DNA of 64,000 nucleotides from an uncultured Parachlamydiaceae bacterium. GTDB taxonomy: Bacteria; Chlamydiota; Chlamydiia; Chlamydiales; Parachlamydiaceae. The stretch is taken from positions 224,001 through 288,000 of the forward strand of contig CAVVXH010000010.1 of assembly GCA_963752155.1 (NCBI GenBank), read 5' to 3'. The position numbers and the translations under genes are program-made. Under the pieces are notes generated by a model. It saw only the letters and a list, made by a program, of their open reading frames with translations, ran no database searches and had not been told where the DNA came from. Shown piece after piece: positions 451 to 55,167 of the stretch; position 1 is the stretch's first letter, and every line of letters starts with the position of its first letter.

Positions 451-632
451 TTCGAGTATACAGCTTGACACGTTCTGTTGCTACTGTGGATCAACGGTAA
501 AAACGATAAAAACGATAAAAACGATAAGAACGATAGAAACGATAAGAACGATAAGAACGATAGAAACGATAAGAACGATAGAAACGATAAGAACAATAAA
601 AACGATAAGAACGATAAAAAACTATAAAAACG

Positions 633-812
633 ATGGAAGAAGTCTGGTTGTAGGAAAAACGGTAATCGTGGAATTAAAATGTTGTAAAAGTTTGGTTCGC
701 GAACATCAGGCGCAATTATTCAACTATTTAAAAGTTCTCAACTTTAAATTGGTTTGTTAGTAAATTTCCGGCATAGGAAATTACTGCAAAGCAATGAGGA
801 CTCGACTAATCT
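633..812 (+). pseudogene. Internally deleted GxxExxY-family gene
   Basis: ATGGAAGAAG is joined directly to TCTGGTTGTAGGAAAAAC...; closely matches the start and 3' half of 52674-53099, with about 200 bp missing plus small indels. Confidence 0.85.
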
Positions 813-945
813 AATCTCCTTTCTTCAAATAAAATTGAGAATTGTGATAGCGCGCTTTTCCACCCTTTTATTGGCATTACTGTCCACTTTTCTGATAATC
901 CCGCAACAGCAAGAAAAAGCAGTTTAAAAAGGGAAATCTGTGAGG
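806..945 (-). pseudogene. C-terminal remnant resembling an IS256-family transposase
   Basis: SLFKLLFLAVAGLSEKWTVMPIKGWKSALSQFSILFEERR resembles the IS256 C-terminal pattern KLLYLA...KKWTMPI.NWK.AL.QF.I.FE.R. Confidence 0.55.
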
Positions 946-1175
946 CAGTCTCCCACACATTTTTATCGTTCTTATCGTTCTTATCGTTTTTATCGTTCTT
1001 ATCGTTCTTATCGTTTTTATCGTTCTTATCGTTCTTATCGTTCTTATCGTTTTGTTTTATCGTTCTTATCGTTCTTATCCTTCTTATCGTCTTTATCGTT
1101 GTATCGTTTGCATCGTTGATTTCGTCTACATAAAAAAACATATCCCGACAACGTCGTGAATGCGTGTTAATGTTA

Positions 1176-19668: not shown

Positions 19669-19767
19669 AAGCCTTGTTCACTTCTTCGCTCAATTATTCC
19701 TCCTCTGTGTTCTCTGTGATCTCTGTGGTAAAAAAAATCTACCACAGAGAACACAGAGGAGGAGTAA
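19669..19767. repeat. Palindromic element with 9-bp CACAGAGAW arms
   Basis: CTCTGTGTTCTCTGTGATCTCTGTGGTA...TACCACAGAGAACACAGAG; second copy at 35594-35702. Confidence 0.9.
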
Positions 19768-28959: not shown

Positions 28960-29332
28960 TATTTAGGGTATAAAGTATAGGAAAAATTAAACACAAAGAG
29001 ATCTTACATGTAAAGTATCGTAACAGCTAAGAAATTTGCGCAAACTGTAGCTCATCATTCCGATGTTGAGTGTAGCCACGAACCCTCTAAATAGTCTAAA
29101 CCACTGCGTGAAGTCGTAACAGTTAAGAAATTTGCGCAGTCTTTTGGTTATTACGATTTCACGCAGTGGTTTAGACCACATGGAGGCTACGTGGCTACAC
29201 TCAACATCGGAGTGATGAGCTACAATTTGCGCAATTTCTTAGCTGTTACGATACTTTACATGTGATCTCTTTGTGCTCTTTGTGCCTTCGTGCCTTTGTG
29301 TTTAATCTTTCCTATACTTTATACCCTAATAT
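28960..29332. repeat. ~370-bp composite palindrome: outer element with CACAAAG units enclosing two inverted family R copies
   Basis: TTAGGGTATAAAGTATAGGAAA...TTTCCTATACTTTATACCCTAA ends; arms complementary over about 160 bp. Confidence 0.9.
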
Positions 29333-34421: not shown

Positions 34422-34557
34422 GATCCTTCCGGAGTGGGTTTTTCAGGGTCGTTCAGGTTCAGTTATCCTTAAATAGTATCATTTTGTTAACGATTAGTCT
34501 AGATTTTCTTGAATTCTTTTCGTGTAATCGTGTAATCGTGTAATGACGTCTGTAATG

Positions 34558-34893
34558 AAGAACGATAAGAACGATAGGAACGATAAGAACGATAGGAACG
34601 ATAAGAACGATAAGAACGATAAAAATTATAATTGAACATTATCATGATGAACTATCTGATTAAACTGTGTAAACTAAAATTCAAATCATTTATAATAAAT
34701 TGTTGCATTTTAGTTTGCATAGTTTAATTTACACTTCCAAGAGAAACAATAAAAAAGTTTTTATCATCTTCTTATCGTTTTTATCGTTTTTATCGTTTTT
34801 ATCGTTCTTATCGTTTTTATCGTTTTTATCGTTTTTATCGTTTTTATCGTTCTTATCGTTCTTATCGTTCTTATCGTTTTTATCGTTGCATCG
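34558..34893. mobile_element. Gene-less copy of the inverted 9-bp array element
   Basis: (AACGATARG)x~7 ... (YTTATCGTT)x~14 ending ATCGTTGCATCGT; ~135 bp core with its own inverted repeat. Confidence 0.75.
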
Positions 34894-35081
34894 TGGCAAG
34901 GGGACAAAATATAAATTATCAAGCCCAAATCGAAGCTGAAGATCAACTTGAAATAGCTCCAGATTTAAAAAAAGCAATTAGTTGTTGCAACATATAAACT
35001 GTAAATGATAATATCTAAAATGCGTGATGAATAGAAAATCAAAATATTCAAGATAATATATTAAAATAATTTATTTATACT

Positions 35082-35593: not shown

Positions 35594-35702
35594 TTATTCC
35601 TCCTCTGTGTTCTCTGTGATCTCTGTGGTAAAAAAAAATCTACCACAGAGATCACAGAGAACACAGAGGAGGAATAATTGAGCGAAGAAGTGAACAAGGC
35701 TT
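35594..35702. repeat. Second CACAGAGAW-arm palindrome, in inverted orientation
   Basis: Shares the hairpin and the 25-bp flank TTGAGCGAAGAAGTGAACAAGGCTT with 19669-19767. Confidence 0.9.
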
Positions 35703-50438: not shown

Positions 50439-50575
50439 TAGCAAGGACGACAAGGACGGCAAGGACAACAAGCAAGGACAAGCAACAAAGATATAAGATA
50501 ATACCATTTCTCGTTTATTTTATATGTCCTTGCTTGCCGTCCTTGTTGTCCTTTTCGTCCTTGCTGTCCTTGTTA
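50439..50575. repeat. Palindromic element with 9-bp CAAGGACRR arms
   Basis: CAAGGACGA CAAGGACGG CAAGGACAA ... CCGTCCTTG TTGTCCTTT TCGTCCTTG CTGTCCTTG. Confidence 0.85.
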
Positions 50576-52216
50576 GTTCTTTTCTTTAATACGATTAAGT
50601 TCTCTATAGAACGCATCAAGTTCGACATCTTCATCGTTTTCAGAAGCTGGAAATTGCTTTGAGATTAATTGTTCTCTCTTAGAATTTAGATAATTCAGAG
50701 CGTTTTTAATAGGGTCTTTTACACTATCAATTTCATTATTAACGTTCCAAGAATCACAATAAAGCTCTATGCTTCCATTAGCTAAAATATATAAATCAGT
50801 AATTTCTTTGGGTAGCCGAGTTAAAAAGCCTGGAGATTGATGAGTCCATTGATCCATCAAATCTAAGAGTTCTGCATCCAAAGCATGCAATTCCTCAATG
50901 CTGCAACCACTCTTAGAATTGGTTAATTCGACGATTTGATGCGCGATGATGCGAAATTGAGATTTAATTTCTTCTAGATGATCCTCCTTTTCAAGATAAG
51001 CACGCATTTCTGGAATTTCAGTATCAACTTCCTCAATAGAAGAATCGTTATTAAGTTTATCTTGAAAATCGGTATTTAACCAATCATTAAAACTTTCATC
51101 ATTAAAACTTTCATCATCTTCAAAAAAGGAGTCTGATTCATAGCCATCCTCTAAAATTCCCTCGTTTGAATTTTCGATCTCGCAAGCCGGAGATAGATGT
51201 TTATTTTCTAAAGACTGATTTTTTTCATAGTTCGCCATGAATTGTTGTGCTTTTTTGAAGTATTTCTGGGCTTTAATTAAATCATGATCCCTATCAGGCT
51301 GATTGCTTTCTGTAACTGCAAAAGAAGGATTTAATTGCTGAAGGACTTCTTCGGCATCAGAACGAAATTTATCAGAAAGTGCATCGGTTTCTTGGTTTAT
51401 ATTTTCGACATCTGATTGAGCAATATCTTTAAGTGTAGTAACTATATTGCAATCTAGGTACGGATTCAGGCTCTCGTGTGATGGTTTGATATTTATTTTG
51501 GGCTGAATTTGTGGGCGTTCGTACACCTGAAACATTTCAATTTTAAGTAAATTTTCTTCCGTAATTCTTTTTAAGTTAGACTCATTTTTAGAAGATAATG
51601 GATTCTTTATTTCATTTATTTGTTGTCCCATTAGATCTACTTCGATTTTAAGTAATTCTAACTTTTCTTGTTGTTGATTTGCAGATAAGTTAATGGACGC
51701 ATAAAGAGTATCAATTGCTTCTCCTTGTTTATAAGCTTCTTCTAACAAGTTTTCAACAAATTTATTTTGAAAGAATAGATCAATTTCATTTTCATTTTCT
51801 TTAGAAATTTTTAGAAATGCTGCAATCTTTTCACTAATAGCAGAGGAGGGGAAATTTTTTTGATCGATGTTTTTTGAGAAAACATAATCGATTTTGGTCA
51901 TTTTGAAAGGAATAGATTTGAGTTGTTGCCAGATAGAGTTCAGTTCATTTGTGGCCTCAGGATCGTTTTTTTTAATGAGGGCTTTAATTTTTGAGCTTAG
52001 GATGAATTGATTTTGAAGTAAATTTTCTATAACCGAAGGTAATTTCCTCGCATTGATTTGTGAAGTTGTTTGGGGGTCCGCTTCTGATGTCTGTTTTGAG
52101 TCCAGAACCAAAGCAATCTCCTTTATTTTGCGAGTTTGCACATTGTCAATTCTTATAGAAAAAAAATTTTGATATAAATTTTGGAAAAAATTTAAAGAAA
52201 AAAATGAATAGATCAT
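50573..52216 (-). CDS. Hypothetical acidic helical protein
   Basis: 547 aa ORF with GAGGT RBS; no family recognised. Confidence 0.7.
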   Translation of the reverse strand: MIYSFFSLNFFQNLYQNFFSIRIDNVQTRKIKEIALVLDSKQTSEADPQTTSQINARKLPSVIENLLQNQFILSSKIKALIKKNDPEATNELNSIWQQLKSIPFKMTKIDYVFSKNIDQKNFPSSAISEKIAAFLKISKENENEIDLFFQNKFVENLLEEAYKQGEAIDTLYASINLSANQQQEKLELLKIEVDLMGQQINEIKNPLSSKNESNLKRITEENLLKIEMFQVYERPQIQPKINIKPSHESLNPYLDCNIVTTLKDIAQSDVENINQETDALSDKFRSDAEEVLQQLNPSFAVTESNQPDRDHDLIKAQKYFKKAQQFMANYEKNQSLENKHLSPACEIENSNEGILEDGYESDSFFEDDESFNDESFNDWLNTDFQDKLNNDSSIEEVDTEIPEMRAYLEKEDHLEEIKSQFRIIAHQIVELTNSKSGCSIEELHALDAELLDLMDQWTHQSPGFLTRLPKEITDLYILANGSIELYCDSWNVNNEIDSVKDPIKNALNYLNSKREQLISKQFPASENDEDVELDAFYRELNRIKEKN

Positions 52217-52511: not shown

Positions 52512-53395
52512 TATGTGGACGTAATCAACGATGCAAACGATACAACGATAAAAACGATAAAAACGATATAAACGATAAGAACGATAGGAATGATAGGAAC
52601 GATAGGAACGATACAACGATAAAAACGCTTTTCAAGATTATTTACAAAAGTCTAGACACTCCCACTCCCTACGTCACAATTTCTCATAGACTTCTTCTAG
52701 ACTAGTCGAAAAGTCCTCATTGCTCTGCAGTCTTTTCCATTCCAATTTCCTATGTCGGAAATTTACTAACAAACCGATTTGAAGTTGAGAAGCTTTTAAA
52801 TAGTTGAATAATTGTGCCTGATGTTCGCGAACCAAACTTTCACAACATTTTAATTCCACGATCACGGTTTTTCCTACAACCAGATCTGCGTGATATCGAC
52901 CGATTACTTTGCCTCTAAACATTACTTCAAAAGGTCGTTCTACTTCGACCTCTAGGCCCATCTGTCTCATCGCAATCAATAGCGCATTTTTGTAGACTTT
53001 TTCCAGAAATCCTGGCCCAAGCTCCTTCATGACCTCAAAACAACAGTTCAGAATGGTGCCCGTCAATTCATGATGAGGTAATTTTTTGTCTTCTTCCATC
53101 GTTCTTATCGTTCCTATCATTCTTATCGTTTTTATCGTTTTTATCGTTCTTATCGTTCTTATCGTTTATATCGTTTTTATCGTTTTTATCGTTCTTATCG
53201 TTCTTATCGTTCTTATCGTTTTTATCGTTTTTATCGTTTTTATCGTTCTTATCGTTCTTATCGTTCTTATCGTTTTTATCGTTTTTATCGTTTTTATCGT
53301 TCTTATCGTTCTTATCGTTTATATCGTTTTTATCGTTCCTATCGTTCTTATCGTTTATACCATTGATCTATAGTTAGTAGCAACAGTCTGAACGG
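52512..53395 (-). mobile_element. Putative element: GxxExxY gene enclosed by inverted 9-bp tandem arrays
   Basis: AACGATARR x~11 at 52527-52627 and YTTATCGTT x~29 at 53097-53360; flanks shared with 471-1132. Confidence 0.75.
52674..53099 (-). CDS. GxxExxY family protein (PD-(D/E)XK nuclease fold)
   Basis: LGPGFLEKVY, ADLVV, IVELK, HQAQLFNYLK and GLLVNF. Confidence 0.92.
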   Translation of the reverse strand: MEEDKKLPHHELTGTILNCCFEVMKELGPGFLEKVYKNALLIAMRQMGLEVEVERPFEVMFRGKVIGRYHADLVVGKTVIVELKCCESLVREHQAQLFNYLKASQLQIGLLVNFRHRKLEWKRLQSNEDFSTSLEEVYEKL

Positions 53396-53478: not shown

Positions 53479-55167
53479 CTATCTCTTCCTATCTCTGTTG
53501 AGAAAAATAAATGGAAACAAAACCCCAAGACAACAAAGCAAAAGAATTGGACTATTTCCAAATCGACTATAAATTGTGGGGTAATGGTATCTCGGAACTT
53601 CGACGTATAGAGCATCGGCAATCCATTGTGATTCCGGCGATGTATCTCCTAACATCGCAATGATTTGCCCAAAACTGTCGCAGGCTGTCGTAATTCCTGT
53701 ATTGCAAGCTCGAACAATAGGGACTCCATTTTCAACGCTACGCAATCTAGCAAGATCGAAATGTTGTTTAGGTAGATTGGAATTGGGGTACCATACATCG
53801 CTCGAAAGATTGACAAGCAGCTCTGCTCCGTTTTGACGGCATTCTCGCATGATATTTCCAAAGGTCTCTTCATAGCAAATAGAAACCCCAAAAGGAATAG
53901 TACTTCCATGGAAAACTGTCGCTTCGGTTCCGAAAGTTAAAGATCCTTGAATTCCATATTTTGCTGCCAGGTTGTGGAAGATTGAAAAAGGGATATATTC
54001 AGCCATCGGAAGTAAGATCCGTTTAGCATAGTGTGGAGAGGCAGCATAAACAGACTCATCTGTTGAATTGGGTTTAAAATGGATCGCTGCACTATAATGT
54101 TGTGCCTTGGCATTTTCATCTTGAATAACATTTTCTAGACCAGCGATGACTTCAGACTGAAAGATATTGGCAACGGCTTGTGCCCAGAAAGCATTATTAA
54201 CGAACCATCTATTTCCTTGATTTGAGATAGATTGACGAGCAAATGGCTCTTGTAGGGGAGGAAACTTTTGTTTAACAGATTCACCGTAAGTTGCGGTAAT
54301 CGCTTTTTCTACCTCTTCATAGGGATAGATAGGTAAATAGGTTGCAAAAGGAACGACGTATTCGGGCAAAGCAATCAGGTCAATATTCTTTTCACGATAA
54401 GGGTGTAAAATTTTAAAAATTTGAGCCCACTCGTCTATGACGTAATCGACATACTGCGATCTCGTATCAAAGACTAGAGCCTCTTCCGCTGGAAAAGCTG
54501 TTTGCACTAACAGAGTTCTATAAGGATTCGACGGTTCTTGAATGGGGTAATGAAAATGAAATATTCCAAATAGATAAGGGAATGCAGCGAGCGATATCCA
54601 TGCGACTAAGTTCTTTTTACTTTGGTAAAACCAAGCTCTTAATCCCATCATATTTACAAGAATAACCCAGAAAGAAAGTAAATAGATTCCTCCAATGGAA
54701 GCTAATTGCATTGAATAAAGATGATTGGTTAGGGCAATTCCTGCGGGATTCCAGGTATATCCTGAGAGAAAATAGAGTCGACTCCATTCAAACAAAGTCC
54801 ACAAAGAGGCTAAAGCGATCGCTTGAGAGATTTTTTGAAGTCGTTCAGGTTTAATAAAAATAGACAACACCCCCCATTGCATTCCCCATAAAATGCAAAA
54901 CAACGCATAGACAAAATAGATATAATTGAAAGGGTGATACAGTAGCCATTTAAGTTGTATCGCTTGTACCGCGAGGAACCATAGTGTCCCTATTAAAAAG
55001 CGCTGTTTTGCTGAAGTAATTTCAAGCAAGACTCTGCACATCAGTGCATAGCCGCACAGAGCTGATAGAGTGCTCAACCAAGGAATGCCGGCAGGCTGCC
55101 CATAACTCACAATGACGAAGGAAATAAAGAGCAAAAGGAGCGCTCGGATCATGCCTAATGTTGCCAA
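53479..55167 (-). CDS. lnt: Apolipoprotein N-acyltransferase
   Basis: ALPE, KRILLPMAEYIP, ICYE and RSVENG. Confidence 0.92.
   Translation of the reverse strand: MATLGMIRALLLLFISFVIVSYGQPAGIPWLSTLSALCGYALMCRVLLEITSAKQRFLIGTLWFLAVQAIQLKWLLYHPFNYIYFVYALFCILWGMQWGVLSIFIKPERLQKISQAIALASLWTLFEWSRLYFLSGYTWNPAGIALTNHLYSMQLASIGGIYLLSFWVILVNMMGLRAWFYQSKKNLVAWISLAAFPYLFGIFHFHYPIQEPSNPYRTLLVQTAFPAEEALVFDTRSQYVDYVIDEWAQIFKILHPYREKNIDLIALPEYVVPFATYLPIYPYEEVEKAITATYGESVKQKFPPLQEPFARQSISNQGNRWFVNNAFWAQAVANIFQSEVIAGLENVIQDENAKAQHYSAAIHFKPNSTDESVYAASPHYAKRILLPMAEYIPFSIFHNLAAKYGIQGSLTFGTEATVFHGSTIPFGVSICYEETFGNIMRECRQNGAELLVNLSSDVWYPNSNLPKQHFDLARLRSVENGVPIVRACNTGITTACDSFGQIIAMLGDTSPESQWIADALYVEVPRYHYPTIYSRFGNSPILLLCCLGVLFPFIFLNRDRKR

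Follow-up and report, generated by a model that had tools for sequence, protein, structure and literature searches.

Architecture of the locus

The 64,000-nt stretch of DNA analyzed here (hereafter, the window) covers positions 224,001 to 288,000 of contig CAVVXH010000010.1 in assembly GCA_963752155.1, which was obtained from an uncultured Parachlamydiaceae bacterium. At 52513–53386 the window carries a compact unit on the minus strand in which a gene for a 141-aa protein of the GxxExxY family is enclosed by two inverted tandem arrays of a 9-bp word. This cassette lies 84 bp downstream of lnt (53479–55167, matched by TIGR00546) and on the same strand as lnt. Read along the gene, it is composed of the following parts, with the evidence for each in brackets (ORF, open reading frame; HMM, hidden Markov model):

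53358–53386, minus strand: left end motif (LT) of the intact copy, reading CTGTTGCTACT..GATCAATGGTA along the gene and lying immediately beyond the upstream array (sequence)
53098–53356, minus strand: upstream arm, reading AACGATARR along the gene in 28.7 units, the last of which supplies the ATG (Tandem Repeats Finder, unit statistics)
52674–53099, minus strand: intact GxxExxY gene, 141 aa plus stop, its ATG overlapping the last array unit (ORF, HMMs)
52628–52673, minus strand: spacer of 46 bp from the stop codon to the downstream arm (sequence)
52527–52627, minus strand: downstream arm, 11.4 units in the opposite orientation to the upstream arm, reading YYTATCGTT along the gene (Tandem Repeats Finder, fold)
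52513–52533, minus strand: right end motif (RT), reading CATCGTTGATTACGTCCACAT along the gene (genome motif match at contig position 276513)

Tandem Repeats Finder resolved the upstream arm as 28.7 copies of ATCGTTCTT at 53098–53355 (score 390), with a 45-bp higher-order period, and the downstream arm as 11.4 copies of AACGATAAA at 52527–52627 (score 97). It also returned the pairs 493–634/963–1108 and 34558–34622/34757–34887, and at all three window loci the plus-strand array comes first and the minus-strand array second. Written as a polymer, the array word is (AACGATAAG)n. The two-unit pattern AACGATARRAACGATARR has 61 matches in the window and none in 100 shuffles. Between the arms of the full-length copy, the only ORF is the one for the 141-aa PD-(D/E)XK protein.

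An earlier note on this DNA, made from the letters and their reading frames, had described an intact 141-aa GxxExxY gene between inverted 9-bp arrays, with unique flanks shared with another copy, and had supposed that the arrays could pair into a long stem. The anatomy given above bears this description out, and in the predicted fold of the element strand the two arrays pair with each other over approximately 100 nt (z = -8.1 versus 20 shuffles). The flank motifs are real as well: across the genome, the LT motif CTGTTGCTACT..GATCAAYGGTA has 24 matches with at most 5 mismatches and the RT motif CATCGTTGATTACGTCTACAT has 38 with at most 4, of which a few, located away from arrays, look like chance. 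The LT of the intact copy has diverged and is missing from the genome-wide LT matches at 5 mismatches.

The GxxExxY protein

The 141-aa protein matches TIGR04256 (GxxExxY) with an E-value of 1e-40 and 138.7 bits (cut-off 35), and PF13366 (PDDEXK_3), its sole Pfam match, with an E-value of 1.2e-39 and 135.7 bits (cut-off 22). Across 48 aligned sequences, D72, E82, K84, and Y36 are invariant while G30 and E33 are conserved in at least 90%. The AlphaFold2 (AF2) model of the protein has a pLDDT of 90, and Foldseek places this model closest to Cas4 SSO0001, lambda exonuclease, and archaeal Hjc; by sequence, no solved structure matched the window protein below E = 0.4. Judged from the model and the conserved residues, the window gene encodes a PD-(D/E)XK core fold with the catalytic D...E-x-K and the G-x-x-E-x-x-Y motif, and the product is predicted to be a nuclease. 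Against the two closest foreign copies (L029 and L030, described below), the ratio of nonsynonymous to synonymous differences (pN/pS) is 0.16 and 0.19, consistent with a protein under purifying selection. The earlier note had placed the family in the PD-(D/E)XK superfamily without an established function, in agreement with the PF13366 match and with the 2012 superfamily catalogue, whose entry for PDDEXK_3 gives the function as 'Unknown' (PMC3424549).

A dispersed family in the genome

The genome (3.13 Mb in 22 contigs, 38.4% G+C) contains 46 loci with period-9 ACGAT arrays, distributed over 15 of the 22 contigs. An array followed by an inverted array is found at 29 of them, with interiors of 18–473 bp; eight have the reverse order with a constant centre of about 107 bp, and nine are single arrays. 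All loci of at least four units are intergenic, between protein-coding frames. Two single 3-unit arrays fall inside long ORFs, probably by chance, and all other array loci lie between genes. The arms are 3–57 units long, and the arrays come to approximately 10.8 kb in all. The word reads ACGATA, then two A/G positions, then A, and the 926 nine-nt units counted vary almost only at the two purine positions. The 9-bp period holds in 926 of 1054 successive core spacings. The units abut at 9 bp with no unique spacers, and a CRISPR array was rejected on these grounds.

TIGR04256 has 14 matches in this genome, three of which are full-length and open. The window copy is the only intact member of its lineage here: 22 array loci hold remnants of the window gene with 78–97% identity, the other gene-bearing loci (about 21) are decayed, and about 20 loci are gene-less. 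In our preferred interpretation, presented below, these gene-less loci are orphans or carry other loops. The pattern of intact, decayed, and empty copies at unrelated loci, which the earlier note had seen at three places, is thus confirmed for the 46 array loci of the genome. The two other intact paralogs are 29–34% identical to the window protein and carry a different word, CACAAAG; one of them (L003) has a CACAAAG hairpin on each side of the gene, within a longer inverted repeat.

The remaining members in the window are a second copy with its carrier and a third, gene-less locus:

475–1131, plus strand: second copy, deletion class alpha (Tandem Repeats Finder, motif and remnant matches)
329–1191, no strand assigned: carrier of the second copy, consisting of an (AGGATA)n hairpin at 365–440 and a palindromic frame that ends in GCAAATTGTAGCTCAT on both sides (329–344 and 1176–1191) (sequence comparison)
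34558–34898, no strand assigned: third locus, gene-less (Tandem Repeats Finder, remnant search)

The second copy consists of LT (475–499), an array (493–634), a gene remnant (643–813, corresponding to interior positions 216–402), about 150 bp of unrelated filler, an inverted array (963–1117), and RT (1111–1131). Its remnant is 87% identical to the window gene with an internal deletion, in keeping with the earlier reading of 471–1132 as the same architecture and flanks with a deleted gene. An (AGGATA)x6.3 array at 365–403 forms the hairpin left of this copy. The third locus has an array of 7.2 units (34558–34622), a 134-bp loop, and an inverted array of 14.3 units (34757–34887), and the loop carries part of a second palindrome family ('loop B'). 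The array pair had been noted before as gene-less (34558–34893), and comparison with the window gene revealed no gene remnant in it. Just to the left, at 34520–34544, lies a short tandem array of (TCGTGTAA)x3.1.

Shared deletions, flipped interiors, and carriers

Two classes of internal deletion recur among the copies. Class alpha, in which interior positions 1–10 are joined to 216, is present at nine loci, and class beta, in which 63 is joined to 323, at four loci with three further variants. Deletion derivatives with the same ends are dispersed at unrelated loci, with the caveat that the alpha copies share a carrier. Since the breakpoints are common to different loci, already-deleted copies have multiplied. 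The beta copies (four loci) share homology of element size only, with no more than about 120 bp of flank beyond the arrays, which fits a unit that moves as such, or gene conversion that copies interiors from one array pair to another.

Of the 20 copies that retain an end motif, 5 have their interior flipped with respect to it, which indicates that the arms recombine; two further copies lack end motifs. Head-to-tail junctions of the ends, in the order RT, 66 bp, LT, occur in at least nine copies. Each of the eight reverse-order loci runs from an inverted array through the right end, 66 bp, and the left end to an array, and they are flanked by the two halves of the loop B palindrome, which also fills the interior of several gene-less array pairs. 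By this arrangement, the reverse-order loci are a head-to-tail junction, or circular permutation, of a loop-B element.

The GCAAATTGTAGCTCAT repeat that frames the second window copy has arms of about 36 bp and 61 matches in the genome, mostly as units of about 190 bp with a nested inner palindrome. Some frames instead enclose a composite with a GxxExxY remnant, and the interior is different in ~190-bp frames that lack the element. Comparison of filled with empty GCAAATTGTAGCTCAT frames gave no pre-insertion state, and consequently no target duplication can be read there. The (AGGATA)n hairpin adjoins arrays in 19 of its 21 genome matches. One more repeat unit of the GCAAATTGTAGCTCAT family, also palindromic, lies in the window at 29040–29230 (contig 253040–253230).

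Arrays of other words are present as well. The window has (CAAGGACGA)n and (GTCCTTGTT)n, two 9-bp arrays in inverted orientation, at 50442–50472 and 50539–50574, and arrays of these two words form an outer layer around AACGATA arrays in some loci. Small hairpins of (CTCTGTGAT)/(CACAGAGAA) units are located at 35603–35668 and 19703–19727. Genome-wide, arrays of the former kind (GACAAGGAC) number 34 and 38, 24 of them paired, and are gene-less as far as seen; those of the latter kind (CACAGAG) number 22 and 24, with 18 paired, and are gene-less. GxxExxY cassettes of other phyla and of a genome of the same order (G035, below) use CACAGAG in their arms, and no intact gene with CACAGAG was seen in this genome. 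Adjoining the cassette, a 547-aa ORF (50573–52216, minus strand) rich in Asn, Glu, and Ser matched nothing in Pfam or NCBIfam, nor any DNA of 40 related genomes.

Relatives in the genus and order

In two genomes of the same genus (G001 and G002), decayed copies of the same family are found at other places, and the flanking genes are only 67–76% identical to those of this genome. The earlier note had asked whether the loci are fixed in relatives, and in these two genomes they are not: no arrays are present in any of the eight G001 and G002 regions next to orthologs of one flank gene of four loci, while synteny is broken on the other flank, so that these array-free regions are not clean empty sites. 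In the wider order, TIGR04256 matches occur in 26 of 61 genomes, with 0–61 matches each. The highest number belongs to G035, a 1.9-Mb genome, whose 61 matches include intact genes and a burst of one truncated form, present in about 40 copies that cover profile positions 65–115 and have arms of 3+3 CACAGAG units.

Association of gene and arms across phyla

We fetched 80 homolog loci from contigs representing one genome per species, and 77 of them had enough flank to be tested. An inverted-arm score, defined as the best inverted match between the 350 bp upstream and the 350 bp downstream of the gene, exceeded the 95th percentile of controls at 59 of the 77 loci when 242 shifted windows from the same loci served as the control and at 55 when 294 other ORFs from the same loci were used. 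Scores of at least 20 were reached by 39 of the 77 homolog loci versus 3 of the 294 control ORFs, and tandem words stood on both sides of the gene at 17 of 77 versus 0 of 244 controls. The earlier note would have given up its proposal if GxxExxY homologs generally lacked flanking inverted arrays, and these counts show the opposite. The arms are nearly always runs of an 8–9-nt unit with a constant core, such as CACGGATT, CACAGAG, CGCAAAGG, CACGAA, CAGGAA, or AACGATA.

When the word classes were placed on the protein tree (38 of the 80 rows labelled, 42 left out), nine changes were required, whereas 500 shuffles averaged 24.4 and never fell below 19. One and the same word class can extend over several phyla joined by short branches, and by this test the repeat word follows the protein tree rather than the host phylum. 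The two closest foreign copies allow a finer view of the word. Between the window gene and L029 or L030, synonymous sites are saturated (proportion of synonymous differences, pS, of 0.82 and 0.87), and both copies retain the AACGATA word with its 9-bp period in 4+4 units; the last unit still supplies an ATG in L029, where L030 has a decayed ATA. The word has been kept despite this saturation and is thus constrained, and the only partner that travels with it is the protein.

L029 (JBBRMU010000064.1), the closest foreign copy with 78% protein identity and the same word, sits on a 2-kb contig of a metagenome-assembled genome labelled Patescibacteria, and it represents either a recent cross-phylum transfer of the cassette or a mis-binned contig. 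The GxxExxY family had no match in a phage collection and is rare in plasmids (8 of 72,556 records).

Comparison with known systems

Literature searches returned no published description of a GxxExxY gene-plus-arms unit. The closest described systems appear to be RAYT/REP (a transposase gene with dispersed palindromic repeats) and Ssn/NTS (a nuclease gene with its cognate repeat), and eukaryotic foldback transposons share the anatomy. Foldback (FB-type) transposons have long inverted arms made of short tandem subrepeats in variable number, a loop with or without an ORF, many ORF-less copies, and target-site duplications. The inverted arms of 3–57 tandem subrepeats found here are of the foldback type, a resemblance that we take as anatomical only; foldback elements have a eukaryotic host and a different enzyme, whereas the present unit is bacterial, has a 141-aa gene, and shows no duplication that we could find.

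In RAYT/REP systems, as described for GTAG-tagged REPs and RAYTs flanked by terminal inverted repeats (Di Nocera et al. 2013, PMC3733652), one small enzyme gene likewise stands between copies of repeats that are dispersed through the genome, the repeats are intergenic and form hairpins, and one or few genes are accompanied by many gene-less copies. The enzyme there is an HUH Y1 transposase rather than a PD-(D/E)XK nuclease, and the repeats are single palindromes of 20–40 bp rather than tandem arrays of 3–57 units of a 9-bp word. This genome has two PF01797 matches, both away from the window gene. The better-scoring one (L015, contig 595230–598553) contains a 341-aa ORF at 1453–2478 with a Y1_Tnp (PF01797) match, flanked by near-perfect inverted repeats of about 100 nt that are built of a 37-nt palindrome (GGCAAATGTCAGAAT...), and it appears to be a separate RAYT-like repeat system. 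A REPtron/RAYT as the mobiliser of the cassette was rejected since the GGCAAATGTCAGAAT palindromes at this Y1 gene are unlike the 9-bp arrays. The comparison with RAYT/REP drawn in the earlier note can therefore be kept as an analogy, though the gene is not Y1 and the Y1 gene of the genome has unrelated palindromes at its flanks.

The Ssn/NTS pair, as described by Chenal et al. 2025 (PMC11893778), also consists of a small nuclease gene flanked on both sides by a dispersed cognate repeat, with repeat variants that co-vary with the nuclease homologs and a pairing that is widespread across phyla. It differs in having a GIY-YIG nuclease and a single hairpin motif, where the present unit has PF13366 and inverted tandem arrays, and in having a host function, the modulation of transformation, where most gene copies are decayed here. 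Membership in Ssn/NTS was rejected, as no GIY-YIG domain is present and Pfam gives PF13366 only. The ORF-bearing intervening sequences (IVS) of 23S rRNA genes, as described for Coxiella (PMC4990558), resemble the cassette as small selfish units with an ORF between pairing arms; the cassette is not in rRNA, its ORF is of another family, and no signature of RNA-stem selection was found in its arms. Because the loci of at least four units are intergenic between protein-coding frames and the wobble asymmetry is absent (48 versus 54 mismatches, see below), an IVS-like assignment was rejected as well.

A DNA transposon or miniature inverted-repeat transposable element of known class was also rejected, as the full-length copy contains no DDE, Y1, serine, or tyrosine transposase. 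In a comparison with homing endonuclease genes, the gene-less array pairs may be seen as possible targets, and the interiors differ between loci with the same arms. Precedents exist for PD-(D/E)XK enzymes in DNA mobility: Rpn/YhgA proteins are PD-(D/E)XK recombination-promoting nucleases, and TnsA of Tn7 is a PD-(D/E)XK enzyme. Together with TnpB, for which nuclease-driven maintenance of IS200/IS605 elements has been described (PMC10690162), they provide models for a nuclease that spreads or keeps its element by break-induced recombination. The GxxExxY cassette, for its part, has neither a guide RNA nor a partner transposase.

A proposed selfish cassette and its alternatives

We propose that the unit is a selfish cassette, made up of a minimal PD-(D/E)XK nuclease gene and inverted arrays of its cognate 9-bp word (ACGATA + RR + A), and we give this reading an even chance of being right. 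In the proposed mechanism, the protein would read the word many times over on both arms, which would form a foldback or cruciform or work in the manner of subterminal binding sites in transposons, and it would nick or cut there. Host recombination and repair could then move, copy, flip, or delete the DNA between the arms and change the array length, with gene-less arrays elsewhere in the genome serving as landing pads and as homology arms for gene conversion. We count as established the anatomy, the family and fold, the intact triad, purifying selection, dispersal with shared deletions, and inversion between the arms, and, across taxa, the association of gene and arms, the co-inheritance of word and protein clade, and the persistence of the word past neutral saturation. 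Binding of the word by the protein, cleavage at it, and spread driven by this cleavage are what we infer from these patterns. A wider version, in which GxxExxY cassettes form a new class of prokaryotic mobile element of the foldback type whose sole enzyme is a nuclease of about 125–140 aa reading its own 8–9-bp word, is more tentative, and we are inclined to doubt it. Under this version, each protein clade would have its own word (ACGATA, CACAGAG, CGCAAAGG, CACGGATT, CAGGAA, or CACGAA), and the junctions of RT, 66 bp, and LT would be relics of a circular or tandem intermediate. We rank the selfish cassette first because its rivals are weaker on the evidence that counts against each of them.

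Several observations weigh against the proposal, and many of them would suit a passive passenger, that is, a gene and arms moved only by other elements and host recombination, with a nuclease for another purpose such as defence or a toxin-like addiction function and with arms that are operator arrays for autoregulation or recombination-prone satellite DNA. All nine alpha copies lie inside one larger composite, the GCAAATTGTAGCTCAT-ended frame with the AGGATA hairpin, so the alpha copy number may reflect the carrier, and the eight reverse-order (R-107bp-F) loci lie in a repeat of about 810 bp with its own 18-bp ends. In G035, all six of the truncated copies examined have 560 bp or more of nearly identical flanking sequence in common, and in the one copy scanned (L129, G035:C24:42200–43400) an ORF for a DDE_Tnp_1 transposase directly follows the cassette; the burst, beside or inside this insertion sequence, appears to be hitchhiking. 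Much of the copy number can thus be explained without activity of the GxxExxY nuclease. No target-site duplication or direct repeat was found at the copy ends, whose true positions are uncertain with copies nested in other repeats. No clean empty site, which the earlier note had suggested seeking at lnt together with a target duplication, was found there in the same-genus genomes, and comparison with G001 and G002 gave none at two other window loci either. For the autonomous element with non-autonomous derivatives that the note had inferred, dispersal and shared breakpoints hold, and self-movement stays conjectural, given the carriers of the alpha, reverse-order, and G035 copies and the missing duplication; so does the action of the nuclease on its own arms that the note had supposed. 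In addition, the intact paralog L001 has its CACAAAG word upstream only, 18–22 of the 77 foreign loci lack arms above controls, the co-inheritance of word and protein on the tree is expected from linkage alone, and 11 of the 14 TIGR04256 matches in this genome are decayed. Carriers, however, do not explain why arms stand directly at the gene in 55–59 of 77 homologs from many phyla, why the word is conserved past synonymous saturation, or why the beta copies share element-sized homology only. PADLOC, moreover, has no match for the window protein and only weak Cas4-like matches for two paralogs. On this evidence we consider a passive passenger unlikely.

The arms could instead be selected as an RNA stem rather than as protein sites. 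In such an RNA-level cassette, comparable to the 23S rRNA IVS, the arms would pair in a read-through transcript and RNase III would cut the stem, releasing the mRNA of the gene and sparing the host operon. The arms can form a long stem in the predicted fold, the almost exclusive A/G variation of the units tolerates G-U pairs, and neither an upstream promoter-like site on its own strand nor a terminator-like site was found for the intact copy, which follows lnt closely in the same direction; this would favour read-through expression. We nevertheless regard this alternative as improbable, as no sign of RNA-stem selection was found in wobble symmetry, arm mirroring, or copy orientation. Among arm mismatches at 53 foreign loci, wobble pairing would tolerate 48 on the sense strand and 54 on the antisense strand, and 119 are transversions; the two arms of a locus mirror each other in their sequence of unit variants no better than arms from different loci do (23 loci compared), by which mirror-image arms are rejected for this genome; gene orientation is unbiased, a point that also counts against the selfish cassette, with 11 of 20 copies co-directional with the upstream gene; and no locus lies in an rRNA gene. 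What is conserved is the word rather than an exact stem. A domesticated pair of the Ssn/NTS type, in which the protein would cut the single-stranded or hairpin word anywhere and modulate recombination or DNA uptake for the host, with the arrays near its own gene being just part of a genome-wide set, appears quite improbable. It could draw on the ~10.8 kb of arrays at 46 loci and on the precedent of Ssn genes, 42% of whose homologs are flanked by cognate hairpin repeats on both sides (PMC11893778). Most gene copies, however, are pseudogenes, the family is patchy in the order, and the word classes cross phyla together with the gene, which fits a selfish unit better than a host function. The arrays are known from assembled sequence, and an assembly artefact or chance repeats would produce such a picture in principle; with 61 matches of the two-unit pattern versus 0 expected, loci spread over most contigs, and the family recurring in other assemblies (G001, G002, L029, and L030), we consider this explanation negligible.

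Implications

GxxExxY/PDDEXK_3 is a large and widespread family, and the arrays of a clade-specific word are a first candidate for its substrate. If the protein reads the word, bacteria hold an undescribed design of mobile element with a minimal nuclease as its enzyme, the family consists of compact sequence-specific nucleases, and many 'orphan' tandem-repeat hairpins in bacterial intergenic DNA gain an origin. This genome, which has one intact, about 21 decayed, and about 20 gene-less loci as well as flipped interiors and end-to-end junctions, lends itself well to such a study. Should the cassettes indeed form a new class of element, they would provide a naturally occurring collection of very small proteins, mobile between phyla, that bind or cut DNA at specific sequences.

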